The notes under the pieces: model-generated
Database searches by the model: none
Told to the model about the DNA's origin: nothing
The model's input: the letters and a program-made list of their open reading frames with translations, nothing else
Program-made: the position numbers and the translations under genes
Origin: a virus
Lineage: Duplodnaviria; Caudoviricetes
Reading direction: 5' to 3' (one strand)
Length of the DNA: 64,000 nt
Virus record (IMG/VR): IMGVR_UViG_3300029305_003884
Location: 96,001 to 160,000 of that record
Part shown: positions 13,522 to 52,540 of the stretch, piece by piece
How the letters are laid out: every line of letters begins with the position of its first letter
Numbering within the stretch: the first letter of the stretch is position 1

Positions 13522-14952
13522 ATGAATACTAACATGAATAATAACATCGACCTGAATTATGTCCCTGCGGCTGCTTCCGCACCGCAATCCCAGTCAACCG
13601 ACCAGTCTCGTCAGACGGACGAACGTATCTGGAAAACTAGATTGGACAAAGACCATAAGTCCTATTCCGCACAGGTTCGTATTCTTCCGAACATGAAGCG
13701 TGATGCACAGGGTAACTTGGATTACGACCGTGCTAATCCGTCCCCGTTCCGTAAGATTATGGTCCACTACCTCCGCATTGGAAACTGCGAAAAGAAGTAC
13801 TTCAAGTGCTTGAAGACTACCCACGACGGTATCAAGCAGAAGGGCATCTGCCCTTACTGCGATTGGACGTTTAACCGCTACTTCATGCTCAAAAAGGCAG
13901 CTGATGCAGGTGATGCAGTGGCCGCAGCCGAATTGGAGGTTAACCAGATGAACCAGGCTTCGACATCTTATGTTGTCAACGCTTTGATTCGTTTGGATGG
14001 CGTTAACCAGGAATACAACAACAAGGTGAAAATCTGGGACCATTCCGTGAAGGTTAACGAAACCCTCGACTATCCCCGTGAACCTGAAGTCGTTGCGCTC
14101 CGTCGTTGGCATAACACCAAGGAACACCGTTACTCGCCAGATTCCGAGTTTGAACCTGACATGATTGAGATGAAGAACGCTTCCCGTTTCTTCCCCGAAC
14201 AGATTATCGGTGGTCGTGACTTTGTTGTTACCTGTCAGGAATCTGGTAAGGAAATAAACGGAAAGAAGCTCAACAGCTATGACAGCAGCAAGTTCGTCGA
14301 CACTCCGAGCGACTTGGCCAGCACGAGGGAAGAAGCAATCGCTATCCTCAACCAGTGCGTGGACCTCGACGAATACCAGAAGGAAGACCTCCCTGCCAAC
14401 TATCAGGAAGCACAGAAGATGCTTAATGACTGGTTGGCTACACAGGTCGGTAGCGCTGCCGTTGAAGTGACCCCGAATTCCGCTGCTCCTGCCGCCAGGG
14501 CTAACCCGAACGTGACTCACGTTTCTGGTGCAGAATTCCTCGGCAATGCTCAGCAGCAACAGGGCGCACAGCAACCTGCCTTGGGCAATCCTCCTGTAAT
14601 CAATGAGGCAGTGAACCAGCCCGCTCAGCAGGCCGCTCCTACACAGCCGTCCTTGAATGGTCTGGCCAATCAGGCCGCACCGCAGGCTCAGCCGCAGTTC
14701 GCACAGCAACCGCAGATGAATATGCAGACTCAGCCTCAGATGGCTCCGCAGCCTCAGATGGCTCCGCAACCGCAGATGGCCCCGCAGCCCCAGTTTGCAC
14801 AGCCGACTATGGGTGCTCAACCGACGATGGCAGCTCAGCCGACGATGGCAGCTCAGCAGCAGGTTGTACAGCAGTCGCAGTTTGCTCAGCAGAATCAGCC
14901 CGCTCCGCAGCCGAATGCCGCAGGTTTCGCTGATGATGACCTTCCGTTCTAA
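13522..14952 (+). CDS. gp32: Single-stranded DNA-binding protein (T4 gp32-like) with a long Q/P-rich tail
   Basis: DERIWK, AQVRILP, Zn ligands H..CLKT..CPYC, YVVNAL, NNKVKIW, GRDF and SYDSSKF. Ends in ADDDLPF. Confidence 0.88.
   Translation: MNTNMNNNIDLNYVPAAASAPQSQSTDQSRQTDERIWKTRLDKDHKSYSAQVRILPNMKRDAQGNLDYDRANPSPFRKIMVHYLRIGNCEKKYFKCLKTTHDGIKQKGICPYCDWTFNRYFMLKKAADAGDAVAAAELEVNQMNQASTSYVVNALIRLDGVNQEYNNKVKIWDHSVKVNETLDYPREPEVVALRRWHNTKEHRYSPDSEFEPDMIEMKNASRFFPEQIIGGRDFVVTCQESGKEINGKKLNSYDSSKFVDTPSDLASTREEAIAILNQCVDLDEYQKEDLPANYQEAQKMLNDWLATQVGSAAVEVTPNSAAPAARANPNVTHVSGAEFLGNAQQQQGAQQPALGNPPVINEAVNQPAQQAAPTQPSLNGLANQAAPQAQPQFAQQPQMNMQTQPQMAPQPQMAPQPQMAPQPQFAQPTMGAQPTMAAQPTMAAQQQVVQQSQFAQQNQPAPQPNAAGFADDDLPF
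14731..14853 (+). repeat. 18-bp coding tandem repeats (QPQMAP x3, QPTMxA x3)
   Basis: cagcctcagatggctccg repeated, then cagccgacgatggcagct-like units. Confidence 0.85.
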
Positions 14953-14967
14953 TCAGAAATGATTATT

Positions 14968-14995
14968 AAGGGCGTGCCGATTGGCACGCCTTTTT
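14968..14995 (+). terminator. Intrinsic terminator
   Basis: AAGGGCGTGCC-GATT-GGCACGCCTTTTT. Confidence 0.85.
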
Positions 14996-15025
14996 CGTTT
15001 TAATGTATTTTAATGTAGAAAGTAA

Positions 15026-16213
15026 ATGGATGGAAGTTTTATGATACTTTTTGATACCAATTCTCCTGCACTTCGTTATGCCGCTTCTCTTATCTCTGGT
15101 GTGGAAAGTGAAGACGAACCAGTGAAGGTCGTTATCGGTGATGACGCCGTGTTATTCACCTTGAAATGTGGTCTTAAAATCAAGACCCCGATTTGGAAAG
15201 GTGACTACGACGTGTCCGACTTCGCTGACTGCAACGAGTTCTACTTTAATGCTCGTTTCCTCGGAAAGGCGCTCAATACCTGCATCAACAGCGACCAGAT
15301 TGCATTCATGCGACAGGACGACACCGTCCATGTTGCTGGCTACCTGAAAAAGCCTGACGTTCCGAAGGAGGATGTCAAGAAGCTTGAAGATGGTTCCGAT
15401 AAGGAAGCTGCTGGCACTGACATTGTCGTTGCCGAAGAAGAGGAAGCCGAACCGATTTTCTCCTACGAGGCCGAACTTGTCAATGTGGAACCGTTTGACG
15501 AAGCCGAATTTGGCGAATCTAATGCTACGTTCGTTATGGAACAGAGCGACATGGTCGAACTGTTCAGTCTCAGCGACTACTTCACTGATGTGGACATCTG
15601 CCGCAAGTCTGGCGTCGTTTCCTTCCGTGTTGGAAACGACGATATGTCCGTGGTTACCCGCTACAACATGAGCAATGTTGGAAACTCCAAGAGCGACCCG
15701 AACTTCGCCTTCAACGTAAGCAAGTCCACGATGAAACTTCTCTCCTTCATCGGTACGGGAAGCGTGACCATCGACTATGACGAGAAGAACAGCGCCATTA
15801 CCGCAAGTGACGGTTCTATCACCGTTGTTGCCAAGGTCGAACCGAGCAAGTACGAGACTTTGGTGTTCAAGGATGGAGAAACCAAGTTCATCACTCCTGG
15901 TACTGCCTTCGACGAGGCAATTCCGAAGCTGTGCGAAAACCTTGCTGCTACGAACAAGGATGACGAACTCACGTTCGAATACATCGGCCCGCTCAATGTG
16001 GGTATCACTTGGAAGGAAAAGTACGGCGAAATCTTCAAAATGGTTTCAGTTGGGGAAGCAAAACCGTTCGAACCGTTCGCAATCAAGTGTCGAATCCTGC
16101 ATATCCTTCTCGGTAGCATCCATGACAGTTCCGTCATCTTTGCCGAAACCGCTACGGGAAAGCAGGTCGCCCTGTGTTCGAACAAGCGGTATCAGCGAAA
16201 GGTGATATTCTAG
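15026..16213 (+). CDS. DNA polymerase III beta-clamp-like (DnaN-like) protein, divergent
   Basis: About 395 aa with three beta-alpha-beta-beta-beta-like segments: FYFNARFLGKALNT..QIAF, FNVSKSTMKLLSF..SVTI..ITVVAKVEPSKY and FAIKCRILHILLGSIHDSSVIF. Confidence 0.5.
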   Translation: MDGSFMILFDTNSPALRYAASLISGVESEDEPVKVVIGDDAVLFTLKCGLKIKTPIWKGDYDVSDFADCNEFYFNARFLGKALNTCINSDQIAFMRQDDTVHVAGYLKKPDVPKEDVKKLEDGSDKEAAGTDIVVAEEEEAEPIFSYEAELVNVEPFDEAEFGESNATFVMEQSDMVELFSLSDYFTDVDICRKSGVVSFRVGNDDMSVVTRYNMSNVGNSKSDPNFAFNVSKSTMKLLSFIGTGSVTIDYDEKNSAITASDGSITVVAKVEPSKYETLVFKDGETKFITPGTAFDEAIPKLCENLAATNKDDELTFEYIGPLNVGITWKEKYGEIFKMVSVGEAKPFEPFAIKCRILHILLGSIHDSSVIFAETATGKQVALCSNKRYQRKVIF

Positions 16214-27185: not shown

Positions 27186-29789
27186 ATGGCAACTAACATA
27201 TCTCGAAAATACACCAACATATCGTATGATGACATCAGGGACAACCTGTTGACCATCTTTAAGGCTAAGGGTGGCAAGCTTGCTGATTTCAGCACATCTT
27301 CATACGGAAGAATGATGATTGAACTCTTCTCTGGCGTAGCGGACCTTATGGCCTACTACGGTGAAAGCTCGTTCAACAACGCCTTCCTTGAAACTGCCTA
27401 CAACACCCCTGCCATCTATGCTGGTGCGAGAATGCTTGGATACAGCATCCGCCGCCCAGTTCCTGCAAAGGCTGCCTTCGCTATACAGACCAAGAAGACT
27501 GGCGTCTATGGCAAGATTAAGATTTTCATCCCTATGGGCACCCAGTTCAGTATCGGTAGCAGCATCCTTACTGCCGTCAGTGATTCCGAATGGGAATATG
27601 ACCGTAACAACGACCCCGATGAAACGGGCTTGCTGAAACTGATATCGGGAACATGTGTTTGTGCTGAGGGATACTTCAAGGAAACTGTCTTCGTGTCTAA
27701 CGGAACTCAGAACCAGACCTTCTATCTTGCTGATGGCGGGTTTAGTGACTATTTCGGGGAAAATGACCCCAACTATGCCGAAGACCATAAGTTTGAAAGC
27801 AGGAAGAATACTTTCACGAGCGTAACTACTGATGCTTCCCTTGTCGACAACTTCGACAGCACGGATGCCATCAATGGCAACATCTATTGGAGAATCTCCC
27901 GCAGAGGCTTCATTGACCCAGCCTTGGAAAACAAGGTGAACGACATCGAGGCTTTCGTGGAAGGCGAAAACTCCACGACCAACTATACGGTCTTGCTTGA
28001 AACTGCCAACGACGGAAGCGTTCAGGTTAGGTTTGGTGACGGTCTGAAATCCGCCATTCCTTACGGAGAAGTGAAGGTTCACTACTTCTACACCAACGGT
28101 GAGCGTGGAAACCTCATCAATGTTGTCGGAACGAAGATTAACCCGTACAAGTCCAACATTCACATCAGGAACGAGTACGAAAACGAATCCGATATCAAGC
28201 TGGATGACCTGAGTTTCGCCTTGACGAGCGATGTGAGGGGTGGTCTCGATATTGAAAGTATCGACTCCATCAAGAATAACGCCCCGTCAATCTATGCTAC
28301 TTTGGATAGGCTGGTGAACAAGCTGAGTTACCAGATATTCCTCAGCAGGTATGCCGACATCAAGTATGCTACGGCATTTGGCGAGGACATTCTGAATACG
28401 AAGCTGCCTGACGGAACGCTTGACATCAAGTATATGAACCAGGTAAGGTTTACCGCAATCAAGGACCTTTACAGGTTGAAGGAAGATAAGTATTATCCTA
28501 CCGCACCTGACGAGTATTTCCTCTCTGGATTCAAGGTTAACGGCTTGATGTACATCTGGCAATATGACAACCAGAAGATGCCCGACAAGACATGTGCATA
28601 CAAGTTCAGGGATGCGATGGAAACCGCTGTGAATAACATAGCGGAAGTCCTGTACAACAACGACCCATCGCACAACGTCGAGTATTACAAACAGATGATG
28701 GTAAATGCAGTTCCTCATGGCCAGTCATTCCAGGATGTCGTCACCTTGCCGTATGTCGATACGGTGTTCGGTGCTAAGCTGACCCCGTATGACTTTGTCG
28801 AGGTAGGAAGCGAAATTGACAGCATAATGAGGGCTCTGAACCGTCGTGGTATGATTACGGTTGGCGCTGGATACCACATGTATGTGTACCCAGTTGTGCA
28901 TAACTACAACATTAAGCTTGACCTTATCCTGTATCGTGGAAACAACTTCAGTGACATCAAGGAAAAGCTGAAATACAACGTATACAAGTACCTCAAAGAC
29001 AATACAGATTTCAAGACTGGAATTTACAGGTCGAGGATTGCCTCCCTGATTCACGCTTTCCCCGAAGTGGCTGGCGTTAATGTCACGTTCGAGGCGGCAA
29101 ACGACATGTATGACAACCTGGATTTGACCGAGTTGACATGGATGGGTGATGCGACGAGTGAGTACATCACTTCTGGCTCGATAGGCAAGGAAGGATTCAA
29201 CATTACGCTCGACTACACGCACCATGCACCTGGTCATGAGTCCTATACGGAATCTCTCACGTTCCCCGTTCCGTCTCAGACGGAAATGTCTAGCCTTATC
29301 AGCGCCTACTACAAGCAGTATCTGGCAACTACGGCAGATGGCAGGTATGTCATCAGGGAAGGAATCAACGAGGATGACGTAGACAAGTTCGTCGCCTATA
29401 TTTGGGACCTTTTGATGCAGTCCATGTTCAAGTCGATTTATGCCGCATACAAGGATACCCGTGGAACGGGAGACCTCGACCGTGCGAACAGGTATTACGA
29501 CTTGATTGATGCGATAAAGGGATGGACGCTGACGAAGGAAAATAAGCTGGCTTTCGTCGATACGGACGTTGTGACTTCCTTGAAGGAAACGAACGGAAAC
29601 TTCATGTATGACTACATCCGTTACGGATTGGAATACGTGAAGCTGGTCAGAAACATCCTCCTCTACAAGGTTGCCAAGAGCCTTATCGACAAGGACGGAA
29701 ACATCACGAACTATTCTATGGACAATGAGATTGTCCAGTGCGAGATACATCCCGAGGACATCACGATTTCCTACGACAGGGAAATCTAA
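27186..29789 (+). CDS. gp6: Baseplate wedge subunit (T4 gp6-like)
   Basis: YDDIRDNL..DFSTSSYGRMMIELFS..AFLETA..ARMLGY, VRFGDG, GGLDIESIDSIKNNAP. Confidence 0.88.
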   Translation: MATNISRKYTNISYDDIRDNLLTIFKAKGGKLADFSTSSYGRMMIELFSGVADLMAYYGESSFNNAFLETAYNTPAIYAGARMLGYSIRRPVPAKAAFAIQTKKTGVYGKIKIFIPMGTQFSIGSSILTAVSDSEWEYDRNNDPDETGLLKLISGTCVCAEGYFKETVFVSNGTQNQTFYLADGGFSDYFGENDPNYAEDHKFESRKNTFTSVTTDASLVDNFDSTDAINGNIYWRISRRGFIDPALENKVNDIEAFVEGENSTTNYTVLLETANDGSVQVRFGDGLKSAIPYGEVKVHYFYTNGERGNLINVVGTKINPYKSNIHIRNEYENESDIKLDDLSFALTSDVRGGLDIESIDSIKNNAPSIYATLDRLVNKLSYQIFLSRYADIKYATAFGEDILNTKLPDGTLDIKYMNQVRFTAIKDLYRLKEDKYYPTAPDEYFLSGFKVNGLMYIWQYDNQKMPDKTCAYKFRDAMETAVNNIAEVLYNNDPSHNVEYYKQMMVNAVPHGQSFQDVVTLPYVDTVFGAKLTPYDFVEVGSEIDSIMRALNRRGMITVGAGYHMYVYPVVHNYNIKLDLILYRGNNFSDIKEKLKYNVYKYLKDNTDFKTGIYRSRIASLIHAFPEVAGVNVTFEAANDMYDNLDLTELTWMGDATSEYITSGSIGKEGFNITLDYTHHAPGHESYTESLTFPVPSQTEMSSLISAYYKQYLATTADGRYVIREGINEDDVDKFVAYIWDLLMQSMFKSIYAAYKDTRGTGDLDRANRYYDLIDAIKGWTLTKENKLAFVDTDVVTSLKETNGNFMYDYIRYGLEYVKLVRNILLYKVAKSLIDKDGNITNYSMDNEIVQCEIHPEDITISYDREI

Positions 29790-32700: not shown

Positions 32701-34988
32701 ATTATGACGAATCGAACATCACTGCTAGGGGAAATGTGACTATCACTGGTTATCGTGACATCTACAACCCGATAACTAGGATAGACTATTATCTCACGCA
32801 GCCTGCGGAGGAAAAGTACAAACCTGGGTATCTGTACATACACACGGCATACCCGCACGGCTATTCAATCTACACGAAGGCAACTATTGTCAATGCTCCG
32901 ACAAATACCGCCAATGACGGATGGATTAACGAAGTCCTCGGAAGCAAGCACAAGGTCGATGTGATTGTAGATGACTACGTCTATGGAATTAAGCTCGATG
33001 CCGTTCACGTTCCTCTTGAAGGGGCTGAGTGGCTCCATTACGAGACGGGTTCCTCTCACTCGAACAATCAGTTGGAAAACTCGTATTCGATGGTTTCCCC
33101 TGAAGAAGGTGATGTCTTGAAGGTGGGCGACACGTACTACAAGGTTGGCATAATGGATTGGACGGAACTCTCTGGTGATACCATCGAGACACCGTTCTAT
33201 CTGTATACCCACCAGAACATCATGGACATCTCGTCAACTAACCCGTCGAGCGCCAAGGGTGACGAAAACTTGATAGAATCCATTACGTTTGACGGAAACG
33301 ATACCGTGACGGTAGTGGTTCATGACAGGATGGACTTGGTCGAGAAGAAGAGCTGTGTGTACATAAGTGCGGTCTACCCGTTGGAATTTGATGGCCGATT
33401 TGTGGTGGATACCGTTGTTACCCCTCGTATGTTCACATACAAGGTGGTGCCGAAGAGCATTCCTGAAAAGGCGGTCTATGCGGTTAACAACTGCAAGATG
33501 ACTTGCACGGAAGGAAAATGGTTCAAGTATCTTGTAAGCGAAGTCATGGTGAACCGTAAGTCCACCTATGAAATCTTCAAGTACGGAATTGCGATTGTTG
33601 ATTCCATCGCACAGAAGCCGTCTCTGGACTATGTGGAAACCGAGATTCCACATGGATACAAAGAGGGCACACGCATTGTCCTGTATGTCGGAGAGAAATA
33701 CTACAACGCCATTGTTACGGGAGTTGTCAACGAAAAGGCATTCCTGTACAAGTTTGCTGACGGCAGCCGTTCAATCGACGTGCTTGGTGGCTATGCATTC
33801 AAAGGTGTGTACATTCCAGAGAATGGACACCTTGACGATGTCGAGCCGCTTGGTATGTATAAGCAGTACCTGAACTGCATTGATGCCGAATACGATTTTA
33901 AGGAAGGCGACATTGTGTTCGCTTATGACAATCTCCATGACGACATGCCTAAGAGGTATATCGTCAAGAAGGGTCTGTGGACACCGTGTACCGAAAAGCG
34001 TATCATGAAAATCAAGAAGATTGATATAGACAGGTATCATAACAACGAGTGGGATAATGCCGCAACGGATGAGATGATTGATGAGTATGTGTACCACCCG
34101 TATACCTACCCTGAAATGGAACGCATGATAGCCGAGGACCTGGATAATGGAATCTCGTCCTACATAATGCCGTTCCACATCAGGAGCTACAACTTCTCAA
34201 GCCCGTACGTGGAGAACATCGACACGACGGAACAGCCGATGCCTCAGTTCAACTCGAAGCATGACTATGCTTCTGTCGCACCTCGCTTCGACATGGATGA
34301 TAAGTTCAAGGGAATCCCAGATATGAAGTATCCTCTGGTTGAAAAGCTGGAACGCCTAATCTATCTCAGGGACGCCAATGTAATCGACTTTGAGCTTATC
34401 GGATATCTGGCCAGGTTCATGGGATATGACATCACCGATGCCAAGAACGACGTTGATGCCAACCGCATGTATGCCACTAGGGAAGACCGTGAAAAGGCTT
34501 TGAGGGAAACCGTGTCCAACCTTCCGCAGTACTACACGCTTGGCGGCACAAGGCCGGGCCTCGAAATGCTTATGGAAACGTTCGGCCTGGTGGCCGAGGT
34601 TATCACGATGTGGACCGATGTCGACCGTCCGTATGACGAACTCATCGAAGAAGACCAGGTTAGCATCCGTGAAAATTCCGACTATGAGCAGGGAAAGATA
34701 AGTAAGTGGGTTCCTACACATCACGTCAAGGTAAAGTTCCGCAGCGATGCCAACTTCGACAACGGTGTCGTTGGTGACGAGAAGGTAAATACCTTGATAA
34801 AGAACATCAAGTGCTTCAAGCCAATCCAGGTTGTGTTCGATGATTTCATCAAGTATCTTGACCTTCCCCACGGGAAAATATATGTTAAGAACGTAACGTT
34901 CACGAACACTGGAAAGACGGACGTGAACATGAATTACAATATCGATGACAGCGAATCTGAGATGTGTGGTAATATATGGGACAAATGA
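29799..34988 (+). CDS. Large baseplate wedge protein (gp7/P2 gpI-like) with internal beta-rich repeats
   Basis: N-terminal YVPDFLKEE..LMQLFSDYL and C-terminal IDFELIGYLARFMGYD..LPQYYTLGGTRPGLEMLMETFG; internal T..PHG/HNL repeats; directly follows gp6. Confidence 0.65.
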   Translation: MAKNPIAVNDGGLFRFVDFMNYVPDFLKEEEDVVTLMQLFSDYLNNAYRNLEDSTRFTFNFFATESTAKAMKNRIDEFVKKLSACDSNNLYVYYLSLPRTNATYNTTKALSYIKNNIYYEGEFSETIPLDVYKNMMKGNSSGDPSNDGDVIYIQYKDNSVYPYYINKADNLLVLDPMRTSQDPFKNTMNAMINGAPRVIKFIPKDVSEAVVSFVGQINNANVYSIKFDVTIDEVENSPSRYREEIGTDTIDVDLYKYFGENTNYVSIDNANGGEIFSWNGDAPTGIFYFKDLYEFMNGKDSYIYQEYRIEKVEFIENEQNPNQSGSGYLTLSNVVNLNVGDSFIIESNEIVGTSGARDVTLAGQYTVETAPCGNILKVKFRDVIDLTPGVSRVKYMTMPNRLYKYAVSYSHLGYDYGNVTPKLEWDPDASINAEAVKVGDTVYPYTTRGNKKIGELRFENMYSFEDDPNDSDNYINVKVKNFVDIPGTIEIIAGNHYYFECRHDEMESEEWVDALDSAFGDAFDTPLASYSVSGGRSYFRKLTDNGQVKFPLGKRSIKRADADSLVVDVYAMDAAMGYFTDEYDARDVEMHSDVVPEVGDFCLISKIERGDEGIIRTEDNKLYTIQQATLMDPAGAKYHVWFDKDIPEITDGNDEPTINGLYEFTFLKGPANRSRAVIGSVEGNTAKCRYWYEDIYTADYWMPSDGSYLLKCAYKDEFNDVIRIKEFIPGNGYKTGDMVYWPLTKSIYRVTKPISGSESESELIEKGAVVPYMYTVADIARKPIYNDYMEGIFRTSQLEYGETVDIDQYEKLNDVLNRLFIEKADDNRLIFGWKDRDFLMNMATYNTSGKARTGFCEFYTTYDENDIVLKNMENYSIASTIPGEGVTLKGLANTLDITAMRLNATETAAGTYIVTVTAAKHNLPDQSKVRVSGAVSPYEMFDFNTPPNEFDIITVIDQDNFTYVRHSDYDESNITARGNVTITGYRDIYNPITRIDYYLTQPAEEKYKPGYLYIHTAYPHGYSIYTKATIVNAPTNTANDGWINEVLGSKHKVDVIVDDYVYGIKLDAVHVPLEGAEWLHYETGSSHSNNQLENSYSMVSPEEGDVLKVGDTYYKVGIMDWTELSGDTIETPFYLYTHQNIMDISSTNPSSAKGDENLIESITFDGNDTVTVVVHDRMDLVEKKSCVYISAVYPLEFDGRFVVDTVVTPRMFTYKVVPKSIPEKAVYAVNNCKMTCTEGKWFKYLVSEVMVNRKSTYEIFKYGIAIVDSIAQKPSLDYVETEIPHGYKEGTRIVLYVGEKYYNAIVTGVVNEKAFLYKFADGSRSIDVLGGYAFKGVYIPENGHLDDVEPLGMYKQYLNCIDAEYDFKEGDIVFAYDNLHDDMPKRYIVKKGLWTPCTEKRIMKIKKIDIDRYHNNEWDNAATDEMIDEYVYHPYTYPEMERMIAEDLDNGISSYIMPFHIRSYNFSSPYVENIDTTEQPMPQFNSKHDYASVAPRFDMDDKFKGIPDMKYPLVEKLERLIYLRDANVIDFELIGYLARFMGYDITDAKNDVDANRMYATREDREKALRETVSNLPQYYTLGGTRPGLEMLMETFGLVAEVITMWTDVDRPYDELIEEDQVSIRENSDYEQGKISKWVPTHHVKVKFRSDANFDNGVVGDEKVNTLIKNIKCFKPIQVVFDDFIKYLDLPHGKIYVKNVTFTNTGKTDVNMNYNIDDSESEMCGNIWDK

Positions 34989-36196
34989 GAGAACATTTCC
35001 TGTATGACGCCTTGGTCGTAACGAACAAGGTTGACCCCGAATTGAGGGGAGGTGTACAGGCTAGAATCATAGGTGAAACCGACGAAATTGACGACGATGC
35101 TCAGTATTTCGTCCGCCCAGACATGACCTGTCTGAACGCCGTCCCCGAGAAGGGATATTACCTGAAAGTCTACTTCATCGACGGGGACATAAGGCAGGGA
35201 AGGTATGTGGCGGTTTCTCCGTCAAAGGACGGATTCCTCGATTACAACTACACGGCAAAGAACTCCTATCCTAACGTCGCCGTCTACAACCTTGGTGGTG
35301 ACGGATTCATGCGTTACTACGACAGGGCGAAGCAGATGAGTACGATAGACTGCCCGAACGGGGGTCATATCGTATGGGATGGAGAAAGCAAGATTTTGAT
35401 GACGAGCGACAAGGCTTACGGCAATGCTGGAAACGGGGCCAACAACAATGAAGGTGTACCCGAACATGCCGTATTGACCGAGGCGTCGATAGACATATTC
35501 ACCGCAATGCCTGTCGGAAAGGGTGTCCTTAACCAGGGAAGTGAATATCTGACTATCCCGCATGTTTCGGCTAAGACCATCGAGATGTACAACAACCCGA
35601 CTGCGGACAACAAGAGCAATGAACCGTCCGTCATAGTCGAGGGCGACCCGAGCGCAACGTTCCTTCCTATCAATGATGCTAATGGTAAGAAGGTTGATGA
35701 AGTCGAACTGTCATTGACTCGAAACTACATTTCGAGATTCGACAAGAAGATAGGCAAGATTATCATCGGTATCAGCGATTCCAAGACGTTCCCCGAGATG
35801 GCTGACGAGTTCATGAAGGAAGGGTCGCAGTCCAGCGCCCATTACCTTGTGGGCCAGATAGAAGGTGACCCTGAAATTGCATCTGAATCTAAGACGGGCA
35901 TACTCAACAACTCTGGTTTCTTGCAGTTCGTCCAGTTGGACCAGGATGCCTATTATGCCAGCGGACTGGAATACAATGACGAGGCGGCGAATAAGAATGC
36001 CGTATCTATCGTGCTTGTCGCATCCGAGAACCCGCTGTCTACGATTGGTTCGTACTCTACTTACCAGAAGAACATGGTGAAAAAGCTGATTGCTCACATA
36101 AGGGCCGAAGCAAAGGATGATACGATTCCAGTAATCAACGCCAGCGATTTGGATGGGCGACCGTCGCTACCAAAGGTATCAGAAACATTTGAATAA
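34976..36196 (+). CDS. Baseplate hub/spike protein (gp5-like OB fold) with a C-terminal amidase_2/PGRP-like domain
   Basis: VDPELRGGVQARIIG and VPEKG..V.FIDGD (gp5/Vgr OB fold); SSAHYLVG..LQFV..DAYYA..NKNAVSIVL..YQ (amidase_2 fold). Confidence 0.7.
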   Translation: MGQMREHFLYDALVVTNKVDPELRGGVQARIIGETDEIDDDAQYFVRPDMTCLNAVPEKGYYLKVYFIDGDIRQGRYVAVSPSKDGFLDYNYTAKNSYPNVAVYNLGGDGFMRYYDRAKQMSTIDCPNGGHIVWDGESKILMTSDKAYGNAGNGANNNEGVPEHAVLTEASIDIFTAMPVGKGVLNQGSEYLTIPHVSAKTIEMYNNPTADNKSNEPSVIVEGDPSATFLPINDANGKKVDEVELSLTRNYISRFDKKIGKIIIGISDSKTFPEMADEFMKEGSQSSAHYLVGQIEGDPEIASESKTGILNNSGFLQFVQLDQDAYYASGLEYNDEAANKNAVSIVLVASENPLSTIGSYSTYQKNMVKKLIAHIRAEAKDDTIPVINASDLDGRPSLPKVSETFE

Positions 36197-36224
36197 AAAA
36201 TGCCGACCATTGGTCGGCATTGTT
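36195..36224. terminator. Bidirectional terminator between convergent genes
   Basis: AAAAAATGCCGACC-ATT-GGTCGGCATT. Confidence 0.8.
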
Positions 36225-36226
36225 CG

Positions 36227-37336
36227 TTATAGGTCGGCCCAGGGGTCATCCCCTGCGTCCAGCGAGGATGTTTCGACGACATCTCCTTTGTGGGCATTAG
36301 CAAAGGCTGCCCTTTGGTTTGTTAACAGTTTTGCTCGTTTTTTCTTTTCCTTGCTGATAGGCTTGTCGAAGTCGGCTGCATCTCTGTCGGACATATCAGA
36401 ACTTGGGATAAAGCTAACGAAGTCAGCGAGTGTTGTGTCTACCGATTCCACTGTGGTGTCTGAGGAGAACCTGTCGACATCTGCTTTTGGCTTTGTGTCC
36501 TTGTCGGAAGGATTCTCAAGCATTTTTTCGGCGTCCATGCGTTCTTCAGGAGTAGCTTCATGGCTGTCATCATCGCTGTCATAGAAGCCTTTTTCGTATG
36601 TAGAGATGTCAGAAGTGACCGTTGCGTCGAACTGGTTCGCAACGAAATTGTTAATATCTTTTGCTAACGAGAAGATTGACGATTCGTTACTAAGAGTGGC
36701 TACTCTGAGCTTATCGTGGAATGCAGCAGCAATATCTTTCAATAGCTGAACTACATATGTACCTGAACCGATAACGCTAAGACATTTGTCCATGCGGTCA
36801 GTATTGTAAGAGTTCCTCCTCCTGCCGGCAAGCGCTTCGGCCTGCCTCATGTACTTGTCTGAGTCGAATGAATTGAACTTGCTGATTAGCCAGTCTATGA
36901 ATTTGGCCATGTTGTCTATATCACTGGGTTTACATAGGTTTTTGTCAAGTAGCTTAGGTGCTACCTTGACGTAAGCGTCAGCCAGCGTTGTGCCTGCTGT
37001 CGATTCAGTGCGTTTTGGTTCGGAAATCTCATCCTCAATTTCGGCGATATCGTCCGCAGGGTCTGGAGTGGTTCGTTCGCTAAGGTTGTCAGCAAGCGTG
37101 CTTGCGTCGACACCGTTTGCATCGAAGTCGTCGTCGGTGGATTCGTCATCATTATCAATGTTAAGGACGTTTTCGCTGTCGTCTTCGTAGTATGCTTCAT
37201 CAGAGTCCAAGTCGTCATATAGACCGATAGCATTTTCAAGGCATACCTTGAATAGTTTCGTCAGTGCTTCGAGCTCTGGTTTCTGAACCCCCATCTGTGC
37301 GACGGATTCGGTAAAAAGTCTGAGTCGGTTGGTCAT
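36227..37336 (-). CDS. Hypothetical acidic late protein with an N-terminal propeptide-like motif (putative internal head protein)
   Basis: ORF downstream of a late motif; N-terminus RLFTESVAQMG..ELEALTKLFKVCLENA. Confidence 0.7.
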   Translation of the reverse strand: MTNRLRLFTESVAQMGVQKPELEALTKLFKVCLENAIGLYDDLDSDEAYYEDDSENVLNIDNDDESTDDDFDANGVDASTLADNLSERTTPDPADDIAEIEDEISEPKRTESTAGTTLADAYVKVAPKLLDKNLCKPSDIDNMAKFIDWLISKFNSFDSDKYMRQAEALAGRRRNSYNTDRMDKCLSVIGSGTYVVQLLKDIAAAFHDKLRVATLSNESSIFSLAKDINNFVANQFDATVTSDISTYEKGFYDSDDDSHEATPEERMDAEKMLENPSDKDTKPKADVDRFSSDTTVESVDTTLADFVSFIPSSDMSDRDAADFDKPISKEKKKRAKLLTNQRAAFANAHKGDVVETSSLDAGDDPWADL

Positions 37337-37362
37337 GAACAATCCTGTGTCATTTACTTAAT

Positions 37363-37372
37363 ATAGTTTATA
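37363..37372 (-). promoter_or_regulatory. Putative late promoter TATAAACTAT
   Basis: Exact decamer on the minus strand. Confidence 0.75.
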
Positions 37373-37400
37373 AGGGGGTGGAACGGATTCCGTGCCACAT

Positions 37401-37410
37401 TATAAACTAT
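37401..37410 (+). promoter_or_regulatory. Putative late promoter TATAAACTAT
   Basis: Exact decamer, divergent partner of the 37363 copy. Confidence 0.75.
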
Positions 37411-37434
37411 TGTTGTATTTCAGAGACTATCGAT

Positions 37435-40400
37435 ATGGCAGCGAAAACACAGATAACTAATAAGGGACTTGAACTATTGGCATCTTCATCTAAGGCGACT
37501 GGCCAGCACTGGTGGATTGGATGGTACGCCCTGGCGTTCGTGCCTGATGAATTGCAGGAAGAGGATGGAGAAAAGCTCAGCCCTTCGATGACGAAGCTGA
37601 CGGAAAATGGAGATATCATCTATAATATCTTCCAGGGCGACATGAACGGTGACGGCTACCAGACGACCAAGGCCAGTTCGAAATTCAAGTCCGTAAACTA
37701 CGATAGCAACATCAAGAAGAACTATCGATATGTTCTTGATGAGGATGGAAAGAACAACCTCGTTACATTCGTTGACGGAACAAAGGGCTTGAAGGGTGCC
37801 TATGTCTATCCTGGTGTCGAGGTGAACACGTCCCGTGACAACAACGGCATCGGCTATACAAAGTCTCAGATTCCGTTGCCTGCCCCGCTGTTGTACACTG
37901 GTGTAAAGGCCGCTGGCGAAGGATGGTCTATCAACGGTATGAACATTTTCCTCGGTTCAGGAAACTATAGCATTGACAAATTCTATCCAGTGGAAGAAGT
38001 CGATGGTGTTGCCGTTCCGAGGGTGTCTACGGATTTCCGTAACTATGAAGGTTACAAGAATGGATTGCCGAAACCAGAGTCTGGGAATAAATATGAAGAT
38101 GGATTGGACGAGTTTAACTCCGACCCTTCCAACCCCAATAAGGTGGATTCAGACGGATGGACTCCTTCTGTATATACTTATACACAGAATGACGAAACGG
38201 ACATGGGCGAAGACTATAACCAATACTGTTTGGAGTATTGGAAAATCCTTTCCATCTCGAACTTCAACAAGTATTGTGCCCCAGTCAACGCATCTAGCCT
38301 CCTGTATGATGAAAATACGGGTTGCCGCAACATGGCCAAGGCCACGAAGTACTTCCCGATTAGCGACTACTCTGTAACGAGTACCGCCAAGACTGCCGAT
38401 AACGAGTATGCTACGGGCATTAAGCTCAAAGTCCAGTTGAAACTCAATGGAAATGCAGAGGACGATGCTTATTTCAAGGACGTTGAAGGTGATGCCGACA
38501 ATGTCGCTTCGTTGATTCCGTCTCCGACCGAAGAACAGCAGAAGTTGTTTAATAGCCAGATGGTCTCGTTCAAGTTTAACCGTATTGGTATCTATGCCGT
38601 TCCGATGAGACAGTACGGATGCTCTGGTGACAGTGCCGAGATGAAGGCCCAGTATCAGATTGATACCGAAGCCGAACCAGTCCTGTTTGCCGTATGTGAA
38701 TGGGATTCCCCAGTCACGTTGAGCGACTCTGGTGAAGGCTTGTCTGAATTCCAGTCCGATATTTTCGTTGACCTCTCCGCAGCAGTCGACGATTCTTCTG
38801 TAATCCGTGAAAGCGCCGTGTTCTACAACCTCTATGAGGACGATGCCATCGACTGGTACAAGAACCAGCTGGTTGCTAACGCTGCCATGGGTGAAGCCAT
38901 CATCAACATGCAGATTGAGATGGGCTATATCCGTGACCAGAAGAATGCCAAGGGATGCTGCCCGAAGCAGGAAGAAATCAAGCAGAATAACAAAGTTTCA
39001 ACTGGGTTGAGAAACCTGGTTGATGCCGAGGATTATAATTCGAACTCTGTTCGGAACAGGCTTGCTGCGGAAGAAGGCAAGGCAATCGATGCAGTGTATT
39101 CCGATACGATACTACATTTTGGTGGATTTGGTGTCCCTCACGTAAACCGAGCAAACCTTCCTGGAATTTATGCACGAAAGACTACGGTAGTTCATGAGCA
39201 GGAAGAAGGCCAGACGCCGATAACGGAAAATCATTATTCCGCTTTCTTTGGCGAAAGCTGTTATATGAAAACTCCGTTCGAGGATGCGGTATTTAAAGAC
39301 AGTGATGATAATGACATTACGTATCATGACATGGCCACAACCTCATACACGGAAGATGAGGAACGGGCTACTAGAATAGGTAAGTTGTGGGTTCGACGAG
39401 ACTTGTATTATGAAGTGTACTCGTTCGTTAAGCCGATGAACCCGATGGTTGATACATTGACTTATGATTATCCTGACGACGTTGACACGAATGGACTTGT
39501 CAATCCAACAGGAACAGTGGTTGATACCTTTGGTGAGACACTGCCTGGTCGGGGCCAAAACGGAACCGTGATAATTACTAAGACCTCAGCGGGCACTAAG
39601 TGGAAGGATAAAGATGCAACAACATCAAACCCAGGGTTGCCGCCTGAGTTGACAGCGGCGGCGGTTCCTGAGCTTTATGCTGAAATAGACCGTTCGCTTT
39701 CAGACTATGAAACCCAACGTGTTTATGAAGTTCCTTATTATCAGTATACGTTAAACCGTGACTACAGTGGGTATGCTGTTGAGAGAACTACATCGTTGAG
39801 GCTGCCGAAAGTACAACTCTACAACATAAACCAGTTGTCTGAGATTAAGCAGCAGTTGAGTTCTACTAAATGGAGAATTCCTACCCTTTCTGACTGGAAA
39901 GCGATTATTGCTGAGAGTACTGATGAAAAAATGGCGAAGATTAGGTCTTCGGCAAACTGGAATCAGACTGGTGGAGATGGTGGGGTTTTCCCGCTTGGTG
40001 GTGCAATGAGTACTCGTTCAGGAAAGACTCTTTACTATGACATGGAGTCTCCTGCAATATACTTGGCTATTGATGGAGTGACCGACCAGGTTGTGGTAAT
40101 GCGTGAAAACCCAGAAACAAATAAATTTGGGTTTGAAATTATTAGTACGCCTAGCGCTCCTAATGGTTCGGTAAATTATATAAGTATCCTCTGTGTAGCT
40201 GATGCCGTCAAGGTGTCCGACCCAATTACTAAGTATAAGCTCGGCTACGACTCATACGCCCTCATGGAAGGAAGCGTTAGTGCGGGTACGCATAATTTCA
40301 ATGCTAGCGAGAATAGCATTATTACCGAGTCCGCTCATTACAATAGCATATTTGGGGGAATGAACAATACTATCAACAACTCGTCCCACAATATGGTGCT

Positions 40401-42246
40401 GAACGGGTTTAATAACCAGTTGATGGGTGCAGTGTTTGCTACGGTTTGCGGTAATGATAATTTACTGCAACTGGATTCTGATAATGCCCCAGTATGCAAC
40501 ACGCTGATGGTTGCTCGTCATAGCGTGGCTCGTGGATGTTTGACCTCGCTAATTGCTACTGAAAATTCTGAAATTGATTCAACAAAGATATGCAGTGTAT
40601 TGGGAAATAACATCAGAATCAATAGCGCTTCTGTATGTTGGTGTTCTCGTATCGCTGCTGATGGTTCAGAGTTTACCCGTGAAGTAAAATGTTCGGACGT
40701 GTTGGCGCATTTGGCACACCACATTCCTCAGCTATACATGACTAGGGCGACGGTGTCAAATGTAGGTGTACCCAATGTAAAAGGCCTCGATGAAGGCACT
40801 GGAATACTGAATTGTAGTGACTTTATTGGATATAACGTACAGTTTTTTGCTAAACCGACCGAAGACCAGTCTGATATTAGCGATGATAGGACTCTATTCT
40901 GTAGTCGCATGGCGGGTCAGTCTTCTGGGTTGATTAAGGCAAAGGCTATTCTGTCTGATGTGTATACTCAGTTCGACGGGTCAGGTTGGAACAGTAGGTT
41001 TAAATACCGAACATTGGAATCAGTATCCATTTACGAGAGTAGCATTAAACTGTGCAATTCTACCATTGGAAGCAACTATATAGACAACCCAGTAGATTCT
41101 GGCAGAATTTCCTTCTGTGATATTTCTCTTTGTTCTAGCATAATGCTGCTGACGACTGAGGGAGCATCTGGTACGACGAAAGATATCGCTTTCGGCGTAA
41201 TGAAACTTGCAAATTCCTGCATTAAGCTGAGCGATTGTGCATATATCTATGATGTAGGTGATAATCATTGTCTGCGTGAATCAAACATCCGTTATGCTAC
41301 ATTGGTGGGTAAGACACTAACTCTGACATCTGGTACCTTCCAGAACATGCATCTGTATGGTTCATTGACTCTGTTCACATCTTTGGCAAACCACCTCATC
41401 TTGAGTGGATTGGATGGAACCAATGTAGGAAATGGATTCGCCGCAAGCAATTATATTTCTGAGTTTGGGTCTTTCATTGTGGCAAACGACCATGGATATC
41501 CGATGATTTGGTCATTGGGTGGCGTTGGTATGTACATGAACAAGATGATTCTCGGAAACTGTGGTGTAAGCGGTGCTTCTGAACCTCATATTGGTGATGT
41601 CCTTACTGTCGTAGGTGTTGAAGGTAATTTGGCGACAGTTGCCTGGATGCCGGGTGGCACGAACGGAAAGTTTGGAACAATCAATTTGGAAGTGACGTTC
41701 AAGTGTGCTAATACTGGATGGGCACAGGGTGCAGGCGGCGAATATGCAATGAACCTGTGGGCTCTAAGAGACACCAGTAGGGCAGATTGCATTGTCCTAA
41801 ATGGCGAGAATATTCCTAATAGTGGCAATGTGGTTGAGACCATGAATGGACGCCTTGGTAATAGCGATATTAAATTCAAGGTTGAGAATGGCCTGTTGGT
41901 GCTTGAAAACACGGGTAGCGACACCTATACGATTTCGGGAAGTGCAGCTTGCGCCGAAGTATCTAGGACTAACGTCGGCGAACCGACGAGTTCATCCTAT
42001 GGCTGGAATATGTGGGATACTGATGACTTTATACCTATGCCTCTTGGTCATTATTCCGCTGCATTGAATACGGATAGTAATGTCGGTGCCAACGGTACTT
42101 ACGACGATATGCTTAGGTATCTCATTTTGGGCTTTAAGAAGAGCGATGATGCACAAGGTGCTGGAGAGCTATGCGGCGTGACATTGGCTGAGGACCAAGA
42201 GTTGGTATGCAAGTATAGCGTGAATATCAATTATCGGAAGTCGTAA
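37435..42246 (+). CDS. Tail fibre/receptor-binding protein with P2 gpH-like N-terminus, FISUMP-like domain and beta-helix-like region
   Basis: MAAKTQITNKGLELLA and FNRIGIYA..VLFAV (tail-collar fibre N-terminus); WRIPTLSDW..FPLGG..ISILCVAD; NSIFGGMNNTI-type repeats. ATG 37435 chosen because the late motif lies inside the 37378 extension. Confidence 0.7.
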   Translation: MAAKTQITNKGLELLASSSKATGQHWWIGWYALAFVPDELQEEDGEKLSPSMTKLTENGDIIYNIFQGDMNGDGYQTTKASSKFKSVNYDSNIKKNYRYVLDEDGKNNLVTFVDGTKGLKGAYVYPGVEVNTSRDNNGIGYTKSQIPLPAPLLYTGVKAAGEGWSINGMNIFLGSGNYSIDKFYPVEEVDGVAVPRVSTDFRNYEGYKNGLPKPESGNKYEDGLDEFNSDPSNPNKVDSDGWTPSVYTYTQNDETDMGEDYNQYCLEYWKILSISNFNKYCAPVNASSLLYDENTGCRNMAKATKYFPISDYSVTSTAKTADNEYATGIKLKVQLKLNGNAEDDAYFKDVEGDADNVASLIPSPTEEQQKLFNSQMVSFKFNRIGIYAVPMRQYGCSGDSAEMKAQYQIDTEAEPVLFAVCEWDSPVTLSDSGEGLSEFQSDIFVDLSAAVDDSSVIRESAVFYNLYEDDAIDWYKNQLVANAAMGEAIINMQIEMGYIRDQKNAKGCCPKQEEIKQNNKVSTGLRNLVDAEDYNSNSVRNRLAAEEGKAIDAVYSDTILHFGGFGVPHVNRANLPGIYARKTTVVHEQEEGQTPITENHYSAFFGESCYMKTPFEDAVFKDSDDNDITYHDMATTSYTEDEERATRIGKLWVRRDLYYEVYSFVKPMNPMVDTLTYDYPDDVDTNGLVNPTGTVVDTFGETLPGRGQNGTVIITKTSAGTKWKDKDATTSNPGLPPELTAAAVPELYAEIDRSLSDYETQRVYEVPYYQYTLNRDYSGYAVERTTSLRLPKVQLYNINQLSEIKQQLSSTKWRIPTLSDWKAIIAESTDEKMAKIRSSANWNQTGGDGGVFPLGGAMSTRSGKTLYYDMESPAIYLAIDGVTDQVVVMRENPETNKFGFEIISTPSAPNGSVNYISILCVADAVKVSDPITKYKLGYDSYALMEGSVSAGTHNFNASENSIITESAHYNSIFGGMNNTINNSSHNMVLNGFNNQLMGAVFATVCGNDNLLQLDSDNAPVCNTLMVARHSVARGCLTSLIATENSEIDSTKICSVLGNNIRINSASVCWCSRIAADGSEFTREVKCSDVLAHLAHHIPQLYMTRATVSNVGVPNVKGLDEGTGILNCSDFIGYNVQFFAKPTEDQSDISDDRTLFCSRMAGQSSGLIKAKAILSDVYTQFDGSGWNSRFKYRTLESVSIYESSIKLCNSTIGSNYIDNPVDSGRISFCDISLCSSIMLLTTEGASGTTKDIAFGVMKLANSCIKLSDCAYIYDVGDNHCLRESNIRYATLVGKTLTLTSGTFQNMHLYGSLTLFTSLANHLILSGLDGTNVGNGFAASNYISEFGSFIVANDHGYPMIWSLGGVGMYMNKMILGNCGVSGASEPHIGDVLTVVGVEGNLATVAWMPGGTNGKFGTINLEVTFKCANTGWAQGAGGEYAMNLWALRDTSRADCIVLNGENIPNSGNVVETMNGRLGNSDIKFKVENGLLVLENTGSDTYTISGSAACAEVSRTNVGEPTSSSYGWNMWDTDDFIPMPLGHYSAALNTDSNVGANGTYDDMLRYLILGFKKSDDAQGAGELCGVTLAEDQELVCKYSVNINYRKS

Positions 42247-42881
42247 TGAAGCTCTGCCAACTGAACCTGACAACGAAGTGCAACTTTTCCTGTCCAGAAT
42301 GTCCGACAGGAGAGTGGCACAACTTTGTCGAAAAGCCTCAGTATATTGTGAAGAATGCGGACTTGTTCCGTTTTCTTCGCAAACTGCCGCCTGATGTATG
42401 GGAAGTCGAACTGACGGGTGGAGAACCCTCCCTGTATGACGGTATAGATGAATTGGTCAACTGGCTTGAACTTAACGGTTATCACGGCGAGATAAAGACA
42501 AACGGTTCACGCAAGATTCCTCGTATGGGTTCAATGAAGATGATATCGGCATGGCACAGATGGGACCAGAGGCCGATAGACTACGACATGATACTCATAG
42601 TCAAGAACCTGTTCGACCACGAGGCCGAGAAGATTCAGTATTGCGAGGACAACCACATCCCGTATAGGCTTACTGACCGTATTGGAGACCAGCACCCTCG
42701 GTACAGGCATGGCATCAAGGGCTACATTGGGGTAAACCCTGCTGGCTCAATCGTACCTTGCCCTAAGATGAGTGCGAATGACTCGATGCCTAGAATATCT
42801 GACAAAGAATACACATTGCCAAAGGGGTATATCTGCCCTTGGTGCAAGACGGGACAGGACTATGAGATATTTACAAAATGA
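42246..42881 (+). CDS. Radical SAM enzyme with short C-terminal Cys cluster (twitch-like)
   Basis: CNFSCPEC (CxxxCxxC), LTGGEP, IKTNGS, then VNPAGSIVPC...CPWC. Confidence 0.9.
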   Translation: MKLCQLNLTTKCNFSCPECPTGEWHNFVEKPQYIVKNADLFRFLRKLPPDVWEVELTGGEPSLYDGIDELVNWLELNGYHGEIKTNGSRKIPRMGSMKMISAWHRWDQRPIDYDMILIVKNLFDHEAEKIQYCEDNHIPYRLTDRIGDQHPRYRHGIKGYIGVNPAGSIVPCPKMSANDSMPRISDKEYTLPKGYICPWCKTGQDYEIFTK

Positions 42882-42904
42882 AGCGGGTTATTTCCCGCTT
42901 TTTT
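42881..42904 (+). terminator. Intrinsic terminator
   Basis: AAGCGGG-TTATTT-CCCGCTTTTTT. Confidence 0.8.
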
Positions 42905-42926
42905 GATATCTTTTTTATCTCCATTA

Positions 42927-42936
42927 TATAAACTAT
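42927..42936 (+). promoter_or_regulatory. Putative late promoter TATAAACTAT
   Basis: Exact decamer. Confidence 0.75.
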
Positions 42937-52530: not shown

Positions 52531-52540
52531 TATAAACTAT
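52531..52540 (+). promoter_or_regulatory. Putative late promoter TATAAACTAT
   Basis: Exact decamer upstream of the prohead genes. Confidence 0.75.

Follow-up and report, generated by a model that had tools for sequence, protein, structure and literature searches.

The two-gene unit

Here we consider a two-gene unit in the tail module of a tailed phage (Caudoviricetes), in which the gene of a very large fibre-like protein runs directly into that of a small radical S-adenosylmethionine (rSAM) enzyme. The DNA analysed, called the window below, is a stretch of 64,000 nucleotides (bases 96001-160000) from an IMG/VR virus record of 178 kb (IMGVR_UViG_3300029305_003884; 42% complete according to CheckV). 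Relatives that share these genes occupy contigs of 419-422 kb, and the window is therefore part of a megaphage of roughly 420 kb. A near-identical megaphage contig of 317 kb (JAFXNA010000004.1, L029 below) lies inside a Bacteroidaceae metagenome-assembled genome from sheep reticulum, a case of phage sequence binned with that of a bacterium. Its binning points to a rumen habitat and gives a weak hint of the host (Bacteroidaceae).

The features of the unit are collected in Table 1. Read mechanically, the fibre frame opens at a GTG at 37378 and encodes 1622 amino acids (aa). The relatives align from the Met encoded at 37435, which makes this ATG the likely start. Upstream of it stands the motif TATAAACTAT, which is found in 11 exact copies in the window; with up to one mismatch it has 15 matches, where 3.0 are expected and none of 100 shuffled sequences reached 15. 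Ten of the 11 exact copies stand 17-43 nt upstream of the first codon of a long open reading frame (ORF), which is how a phage-specific promoter would behave. The one at 52531 is not within 200 nt of any long ORF. Sites span 21390-60572 and include 21428, 25562, 27153, 37401, 42927, 49287, 56879 and 60563, as well as 21390 and 37363 on the minus strand, so that two divergent pairs are formed (21390/21428 and 37363/37401). The copy at 42927 is the next one after the terminator that closes the unit, and the ORF list of the window holds no further credible ORF between promoter and terminator. A sequence motif at 37401, translational coupling through TAATG, a terminator behind the enzyme gene and nothing but two genes in the unit had all been proposed in the original prediction, and each of these holds.

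Table 1. Features of the two-gene unit and of the corresponding slot in sister phages (positions are those of the window unless a contig is named)
Feature	Position	Strand	Remarks
Mirror copy of TATAAACTAT	37363-37372	-	Faces the divergent gene 36227-37342
Promoter-like motif TATAAACTAT	37401-37410	+	Phage-specific; 34 nt upstream of the fibre ATG
Gene of the fibre-like, probable receptor-binding protein, 1603 aa	37435-42246	+	Named from context and architecture
N-terminal domain of ~560 aa	37435-39114	+	Conserved; presumed baseplate attachment
Fib_succ_major (FISUMP)-like segment, aa 764-844	39724-39966	+	Weak; E 0.042, below the Pfam cut-off
Cys/Ser-rich, beta-helix-like middle segment, aa 929-1290	40219-41304	+	Variant-specific; 4.1% Cys
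R1-class tip domain, aa 1291-1603	41305-42243	+	C-terminal end LVCKYSVNINYRKS; conserved C1506, C1580, C1592
TAATG stop/start overlap	42244-42248	+	Fibre TAA (42244-42246) shares its last A with the rSAM ATG (42246-42248)
Gene of the minimal twitch-like rSAM enzyme P0001, 211 aa	42246-42881	+	
Intrinsic terminator	42880-42910	+	Hairpin 42880-42901 with 8-bp stem, then a T-run; closes the unit
GT-A glycosyltransferase genes of sister megaphages	L086:14942-15670; L089:14950-15672; L108:14227-14910; L111:12211-12882		

Outside the unit, a hairpin with a perfect 10-bp stem (36199-36221), which scores as a terminator on both strands, separates the convergent genes 34976-36196 (+) and 36227-37342 (-).

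The fibre-like protein

From its context and architecture, the product of the first gene is probably a fibre or receptor-binding protein, although of no named fibre family. The gene is found in a baseplate/tail module, with a gp6-like baseplate wedge gene (27186-29789; phrog_219, 6e-26) two to three genes upstream, and the protein joins a conserved N-terminal anchor to an exchangeable C-terminus. More than 120 relatives, which range from 883 to 1974 aa in length, keep the first ~560 residues at 31-98% identity and have their C-termini swapped. Among the megaphages this N-terminal domain is conserved at 77-98% identity, and in a deeper clade at 28-42%. Weak matches to left-handed beta-helix Pfam families are seen in the middle segment of the relatives. 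The FISUMP-like segment recurs at the equivalent position in three relatives (P0195, P0188 and P0203), again weakly and below the Pfam cut-off (E 0.0016-0.0046). Such a recurrent sub-threshold match suggests, at the level of sequence, a real but divergent lectin-like domain in several of these fibres.

Direct searches gave little to name the protein by. The N-terminal domain had no match in a PDB profile search or in Pfam scans of its individual members, tblastn of both fibre halves found nothing among cultured phages, and blastn of the whole unit likewise found nothing. When the fibre, the genes around it and ten upstream partners of related enzymes were searched against Pfam and PHROG, nothing useful for naming them was returned. 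The one lead was a weak match to a Phage_tail_fib cluster in the protein atlas (score 0.78). The tail fibre of about 1600 aa that the original prediction described is borne out in its gene and size, and as a fibre it is probable from context rather than by homology to a named family.

A minimal twitch-type enzyme

The second gene encodes a protein with both the CxxxCxxC and GGEP motifs and the partial (beta/alpha) TIM barrel of the radical SAM superfamily. The motifs first noticed in the sequence (C12xxxC16xxC19, G58GEP61 and a twitch-like tail of C172...C197xxC200) are all present and kept throughout the family. Among 102 family representatives, GGEP is conserved in 99%, C172, C197 and C200 in 96%, C133 in 88%, and C12, C16 and C19 in 84-86%, where the remainder are N-terminally truncated gene calls and every aligned relative with an intact N-terminus has the three residues. 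T85-N-G87, H104, P110, D114 and K129 are further conserved positions. In full-length members the catalytic motifs and the four additional cysteines are essentially always retained at an overall identity of 31-40%. With 25.4 bits, P0001 itself falls short of the cut-off of Pfam PF04055 (29.5); its relatives P0005-P0016 carry PF04055, and P0035 reaches 39.9 bits.

An AlphaFold2 model of P0001, built on 19 relatives (pLDDT 84.7), was compared with solved chains by exhaustive structural alignment, and Foldseek gave a similar order. The nearest folds are SuiB (Z 13.7), MoaA (13.3), PqqE (12.2), SkfB (12.0) and BlsE (11.9), followed by DesII (11.1), EpeE (10.9), BtrN (9.7), QueE (8.3-8.7) and the activating enzyme PflA-AE (8.2). 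The choice between a QueE or NrdG-like enzyme and one of the SPASM/twitch type, on which the original prediction had hinged, therefore falls to the latter group. In the model a hairpin (159-170) precedes C172, and C197xxC200 runs into the last helix (201-210), a topology which we take to resemble that of the twitch domain of BtrN. It is likely, judging from this arrangement, that C133, C172, C197 and C200 hold a second Fe-S cluster. As modelled, P0001 is a minimal twitch-type radical SAM enzyme with its motifs intact that belongs to no named subfamily.

The NCBIfam matches of P0001 include many SPASM maturases, all confined to the first ~120 residues (mostly ~90) and far below the cut-offs: QueE has 35.1 bits against 260.1 (residues 10-93), MoaA 31 against 284 and NrdG2 (TIGR02495) 29.7 against 131.15. 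Identity with QueE was rejected on this score and on the fold, given its lower Z than the 12-13.7 of the nearest twitch/SPASM enzymes. An NrdG/PflA-type activase was likewise rejected, since the TIGR02495 cut-off is not reached, the Z of PflA-AE is low and the unit holds no NrdD or PFL gene. The full seven-Cys SPASM motif (CX9-15GX4C...CX2CX5CX3C...C) is not present either; four conserved cysteines follow the core, and there is no CX2CX5CX3C. P0001 has no RiPP recognition element (RRE), for which there is no room because the cluster motif starts at residue 12, and no small precursor ORF is found in the unit. The substrate motif of anSME, (C/S)x(P/A)xR, is absent from the window fibre and occurs in two of 25 upstream partners, at non-conserved places. 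Pfam, PHROG and structure searches showed no similarity of P0001 to Tfa/gp38-type chaperones in sequence or fold, and a BFVD search with the enzyme model returned only generic uncharacterised viral rSAMs.

An enzyme family placed behind fibre modules

A profile search of 1.8 billion representatives recovered about 120 family clusters (50% identity) with E below about 1e-14. In most of them the match extends over nearly the entire profile, while others are fragmentary or partial, and the lengths are mostly 195-300 aa; beyond these come generic N-terminal rSAM matches. As far as the sequences searched allow one to tell, the family is found almost only on phage contigs. A two-peptide-pattern scan of 185,579 prokaryote species genomes gave one full-length relative, the megaphage contig L029, and no full-length homologue was present in 50,697 cultured-phage records. 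The only tblastn matches among cultured phages were the rSAMs of Campylobacter phage CPt10, which were rejected as family members: they form a cluster of five rSAM genes with a possible amidinotransferase in a different context, near baseplate lysozyme and PAAR genes (L149, 73874-79429 of the record).

Among the family members, some have C-terminal extensions (about 290-305 aa in all) and are common in lambda-like phages, and P0056 (387 aa) has an insert of ~160 aa between CxxxCxxC and GGEP.

Pattern scans of IMG/VR with three family alignments added 27 and 16 loci, and the genomic contexts described here, taken from the scanned IMG/VR, genome and metagenome loci, cover a minority of the ~120 clusters. 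The original prediction had asked whether homologous enzymes sit behind fibres in other phages. They do so, directly behind fibre-module genes and in several unrelated phage lineages: the rSAM start overlaps or closely follows the stop of an upstream gene on the same strand in 42 of 43 loci with a readable junction. The junctions are overlaps of TAATG, ATGA or TGATG or short gaps; the distance does not exceed 12 nt in 40 loci, and the others reach about 35 nt at most. An inverted gene has been inserted in the single exception (L007).

The genes upstream belong to more than ten groups that are unrelated in sequence and come from both myovirus-like and lambda-like tail modules. Several groups have the typical features of receptor-binding proteins, in that the N-terminus is conserved, the C-terminus varies and paralogues stand one behind the other, and those partners that can be annotated are tail fibres or Tfa-like assembly proteins. 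Lambda-like loci run from J (phrog_31, 3e-43) through a tail fibre (phrog_11518, 2e-43) and a Tfa-like protein of 149 aa (phrog_1795, 4e-16) to the rSAM, sometimes with a second rSAM paralogue. By tblastn, the Tfa-like protein matches proteins that are annotated for tail fibre assembly in phages of Aeromonas, Vibrio and Aquamicrobium. Since it separates fibre and rSAM, the enzyme is not a simple substitute for a chaperone. The family appears to be a fixture of the fibre module in myovirus-like and siphovirus-like tails, added to the chaperone rather than merely replacing it. A tandem of rSAM paralogues behind a Tfa-like gene is seen in one lambda-like tail module (L032:6992-7678 and L032:7675-8535).

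The enzyme tracks the class of the fibre tip

Whether the enzyme co-varies with the C-terminus of the fibre can be judged among close relatives of the window. A scan of IMG/VR with a profile of the fibre N-terminus returned 33 loci, seven of which have the rSAM behind a fibre with the backbone found in the window. In the others, the slot right after the fibre stop (offset 0 or +4) is empty or filled by a protein of 223-242 aa. When the last 200 residues of the fibres were compared, the tips fell cleanly into classes. Class R1, which ends in ...LVCKWxVDIxYRKV, comprises the window and three IMG/VR contigs, and class R2 comprises four contigs of the deeper clade; in both, the slot holds the rSAM. 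Fibres of class G end in ...FVKxDGKIYVMxY and have a glycosyltransferase in the slot, and five other, various tip classes have an empty slot. There is an exception to this pattern in R2, with segment-level matches to three fibres that have no mini rSAM, namely L102 and L107 (none) and L105 (where the contig ends before the slot).

Scans anchored on the R1 tip retrieved seven contigs, four of them new, from independent metagenome assemblies, and three already known from IMG/VR, and all have the rSAM and TAATG. With the window and L029 counted in, R1 tip and rSAM occur together in nine of nine cases, with TAATG in all eight of the other R1 contigs. The presence of the enzyme thus follows the tip class, as the original prediction had proposed for the fibre C-terminus. 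Both rSAM and glycosyltransferase are found among phages whose fibre N-termini are 77-83% identical, and the pair of G tip and glycosyltransferase is found again in a clade with ~30% identical fibre N-termini. Together these two observations indicate that the tip moves with its enzyme.

Other rSAM genes lie near some of these fibres. In L102, where a fibre with the same backbone has no mini rSAM, a different rSAM of 334 aa (14498-15502, minus strand) converges on the fibre gene and overlaps its end; among PDB sequences, the twitch dehydrogenase SpeY is closest to this rSAM (4e-5). A gene for an rSAM-like protein of 336 aa is found on the opposite strand in L005.

A glycosyltransferase in the same slot

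The slot protein of the G tips has the motifs NRxxNRNxGL, FFDGD and WGxEDQ. Its model has a GT-A fold (pLDDT 94.8) and matches B4GALNT1 (1e-9), AvpGT, TarS, TarP and RmlT. In a scan anchored on this glycosyltransferase (L117-L141), 24 of 25 loci follow a gene that ends in ...FVKxxGxIYVMxY at a distance of -1 to +7 nt, and one does so at 38 nt. The backbones upstream are 512-1745 aa long and include a different one of 512-606 aa. On the modelled fold and this placement, G tip and GT-A enzyme make up a candidate fibre-glycosylation cassette in its own right. The two enzyme types also meet in a single protein: P0035 (469 aa) is a natural fusion of the mini rSAM family (residues 1-233) with a glycosyltransferase domain (phrog_34859, 3.7e-8).

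What the enzyme may act on

We read the unit as a cassette of a fibre tip and its tailoring enzyme, in which a tip-specific enzyme is made with the fibre and acts on it, and give this reading a probability of roughly 58%. The late promoter would yield one mRNA for the 1603-aa fibre and the 211-aa enzyme, and the stop/start overlap would have the two made together. In the anaerobic cytoplasm of the host, the enzyme would then act on the C-terminal tip of the co-encoded fibre or, in the siphophage versions, on an intermediate of fibre and Tfa assembly, and install a radical-mediated covalent change required for the stability of the tip or for receptor binding. As candidate chemistry we would favour a thioether or C-C cross-link involving Cys1506, Cys1580 or Cys1592, then epimerisation, and after that an action on a sugar attached to the tip.

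The original prediction of a maturase dedicated to a receptor-binding protein is strengthened by the coupling, the co-variation and the SPASM/twitch-like fold, and has lost one of its clues, the Cys-richness of the fibre. That the fibre tip is the substrate we infer, as we do the chemistry of the enzyme and its bound second cluster. Concerning the lost clue, the composition itself is as described: from the N-terminal to the C-terminal half of the window fibre, Cys rises from 1.0 to 2.7%, Ser from 7.1 to 10.6% and Asn from 7.1 to 8.1%. The Cys excess lies in the middle segment (residues 929-1290), which other rSAM-linked fibres do not share; residues ~981-1284 have no counterpart in the fibres of L003 and L004. 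In the C-terminal halves of other rSAM-linked fibres Cys amounts to 1.1-1.6%, and it is the same in fibres linked to the glycosyltransferase or to no enzyme. Cys-richness was therefore rejected as a link to the rSAM, being variant-specific. Among the cysteines of 19 distinct R1 tips, which are 41-99% identical to one another, only C1506 (100%), C1580 (100%) and C1592 (89%) are conserved.

Several points weigh against the enzyme being a maturase of the tip, beginning with this lack of correlation between the Cys content of the fibre and the presence of the enzyme. P0001 has neither an RRE nor another substrate-binding domain, and there is no direct evidence of any modification. The rSAMs of the R1 contigs are 89-97% identical and thus far more conserved than the tips they accompany (41-98%), so the variable surface is not what the enzyme is tuned to; any recognition of the tip would have to depend on a conserved core or a structural feature. 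The rSAM-linked tips of classes R1, R2, B, C and D share no homology or common motif (hhalign probability <16%), and no recognition element was identified among them. Many of the loci are related contigs, so that the counts overstate independence, and the fibre identity of the 1603-aa protein rests on context, there being no Pfam, PHROG, PDB-sequence or cultured-phage match.

Three other explanations have to be set beside this one. The enzyme could act on carbohydrate, either a nucleotide-sugar or a glycan on the tip, as part of virion glycosylation, of which the GT-A cassette would be a simpler version. A glycosyltransferase in the identical coupled slot of sister phages, the fusion P0035 and the presence of the sugar-acting twitch enzymes BlsE (Z 11.9), DesII (11.1) and BtrN (9.7) among the near folds all fit this idea, and glycosylated phage virions are known (Freeman et al., 2023, as cited in PMC11256854). 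Yet the rSAM units of the window and of the other R1 contigs hold no glycosyltransferase, the best fold matches are mostly peptide-modifying (SuiB, PqqE, SkfB), and a small-molecule enzyme would need neither to track the tip class nor to be translationally coupled to the tip. We consider it unlikely. Somewhat more doubtful still is a tip-specific assembly factor analogous to Tfa or gp38, in which an rSAM scaffold folds or trimerises the tip and leaves no covalent mark. The gene does stand in the position of a fibre chaperone, its translation is coupled to that of the gene before it, and it accompanies the tip as chaperones do in the classical cassettes. A near-universal CxxxCxxC, GGEP and four further cysteines are nevertheless hard to explain for a protein that is not an enzyme; moreover, in the lambda-like loci the place between fibre and rSAM is already taken by a Tfa-like protein, and P0001 resembles no known fibre chaperone in sequence or fold.

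Operon ends behind fibre genes are common sites of accessory genes, and the enzyme might be such an unrelated ('moron') gene, for example a QueE/NrdG-like activase or an anti-defence enzyme. QueE is indeed the best NCBIfam match of P0001 and NrdG2 the third, and PHROG lists a QueE-like family. These two matches cover only residues ~10-93, however, at 35 and 30 bits where 260 and 131 would be needed, and the fold is nearer to SPASM/twitch enzymes. An accessory gene would also hardly be coupled to the gene upstream in 42 of 43 loci with unrelated tail modules, or track the tip class where the fibre N-termini are 77-83% identical, and the unit has no companion genes of queuosine synthesis or NrdD. 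This explanation seems to us quite improbable.

Comparison with known systems

The tailoring enzyme proposed here shares with twitch/SPASM rSAMs (BtrN, MoaA, SkfB, SuiB, PqqE, EpeE/YydG, anSME) the CxxxCxxC and GGEP core on a partial TIM barrel and a C-terminal beta-hairpin and helix with extra conserved cysteines, and these are its nearest solved folds (Z 9.7-13.7). Unlike them, it has no RRE, no N-terminal extension and no seven-Cys SPASM motif, is shorter (211 aa, against about 250 aa for BtrN) and reaches no NCBIfam or Pfam subfamily model; its partner is a presumed virion protein of 1600 aa and not a short precursor or a cofactor pathway. The small size and the N-terminal cluster and GGEP motifs recall the QueE/NrdG/PflA activases, from which it differs in the four conserved C-terminal cysteines and in the lack of a deazaguanine or NrdD context. 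In its genetic arrangement the unit is like the cassettes of tip and chaperone (lambda stf-tfa, Mu S-U, P2 H-G, T4 gp37-gp38), with the second gene directly behind the fibre, coupled to it and exchanged with the tip. The downstream partner is, in contrast, an apparently active enzyme (an rSAM, or a GT-A enzyme in the sisters) instead of Tfa or gp38, and the siphophage loci have a Tfa-like protein in addition.

Virion proteins of other phages are known to be modified. In mycobacteriophages, capsid and tail proteins are glycosylated (Freeman et al., 2023, as cited in PMC11256854), and a tail protein is methylated in a manner dependent on the host MepM (PMC13445384). These are precedents for structural proteins whose enzymatic modification affects the properties or adsorption of the particle, although the chemistry, enzymes and phages are different, and neither a radical SAM enzyme nor a tip-linked cassette is involved there. 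In the literature that could be searched we found no description of a radical SAM enzyme linked to a phage tail fibre. What is particular to the present system is a minimal twitch-type enzyme with no RRE, a large non-repetitive tip as partner, the alternation of rSAM, glycosyltransferase and bare tip among sister phages, and the rSAM-glycosyltransferase fusion.

Implications

To our knowledge, what a receptor-binding protein contributes to host range has been regarded as fully encoded in its gene. The system described here suggests that the host-recognising part of the virion undergoes chemical tailoring by phage enzymes. More broadly, and with somewhat less than even confidence, we propose that phages of anaerobic environments carry exchangeable cassettes of tip and tailoring enzyme, in which a minimal two-cluster rSAM makes a covalent, radical-derived change in the folded tip of a 1600-aa virion protein, a GT-A enzyme is its equivalent for another tip, and host recognition needs an enzymatic maturation step that moves horizontally with the tip. 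The sister phages provide a clean natural experiment, since a common fibre backbone carries an rSAM tip, a glycosyltransferase tip or neither. If the proposal is true, host-range prediction, heterologous expression of fibres and tip engineering would need the partner enzyme along with anaerobic Fe-S chemistry. Among known twitch-type rSAMs the family would be the smallest, and it would be a compact model for enzymes with auxiliary clusters. The range of proteins modified by radical SAM chemistry, at present small peptides and a few enzymes, would come to include large virion proteins.

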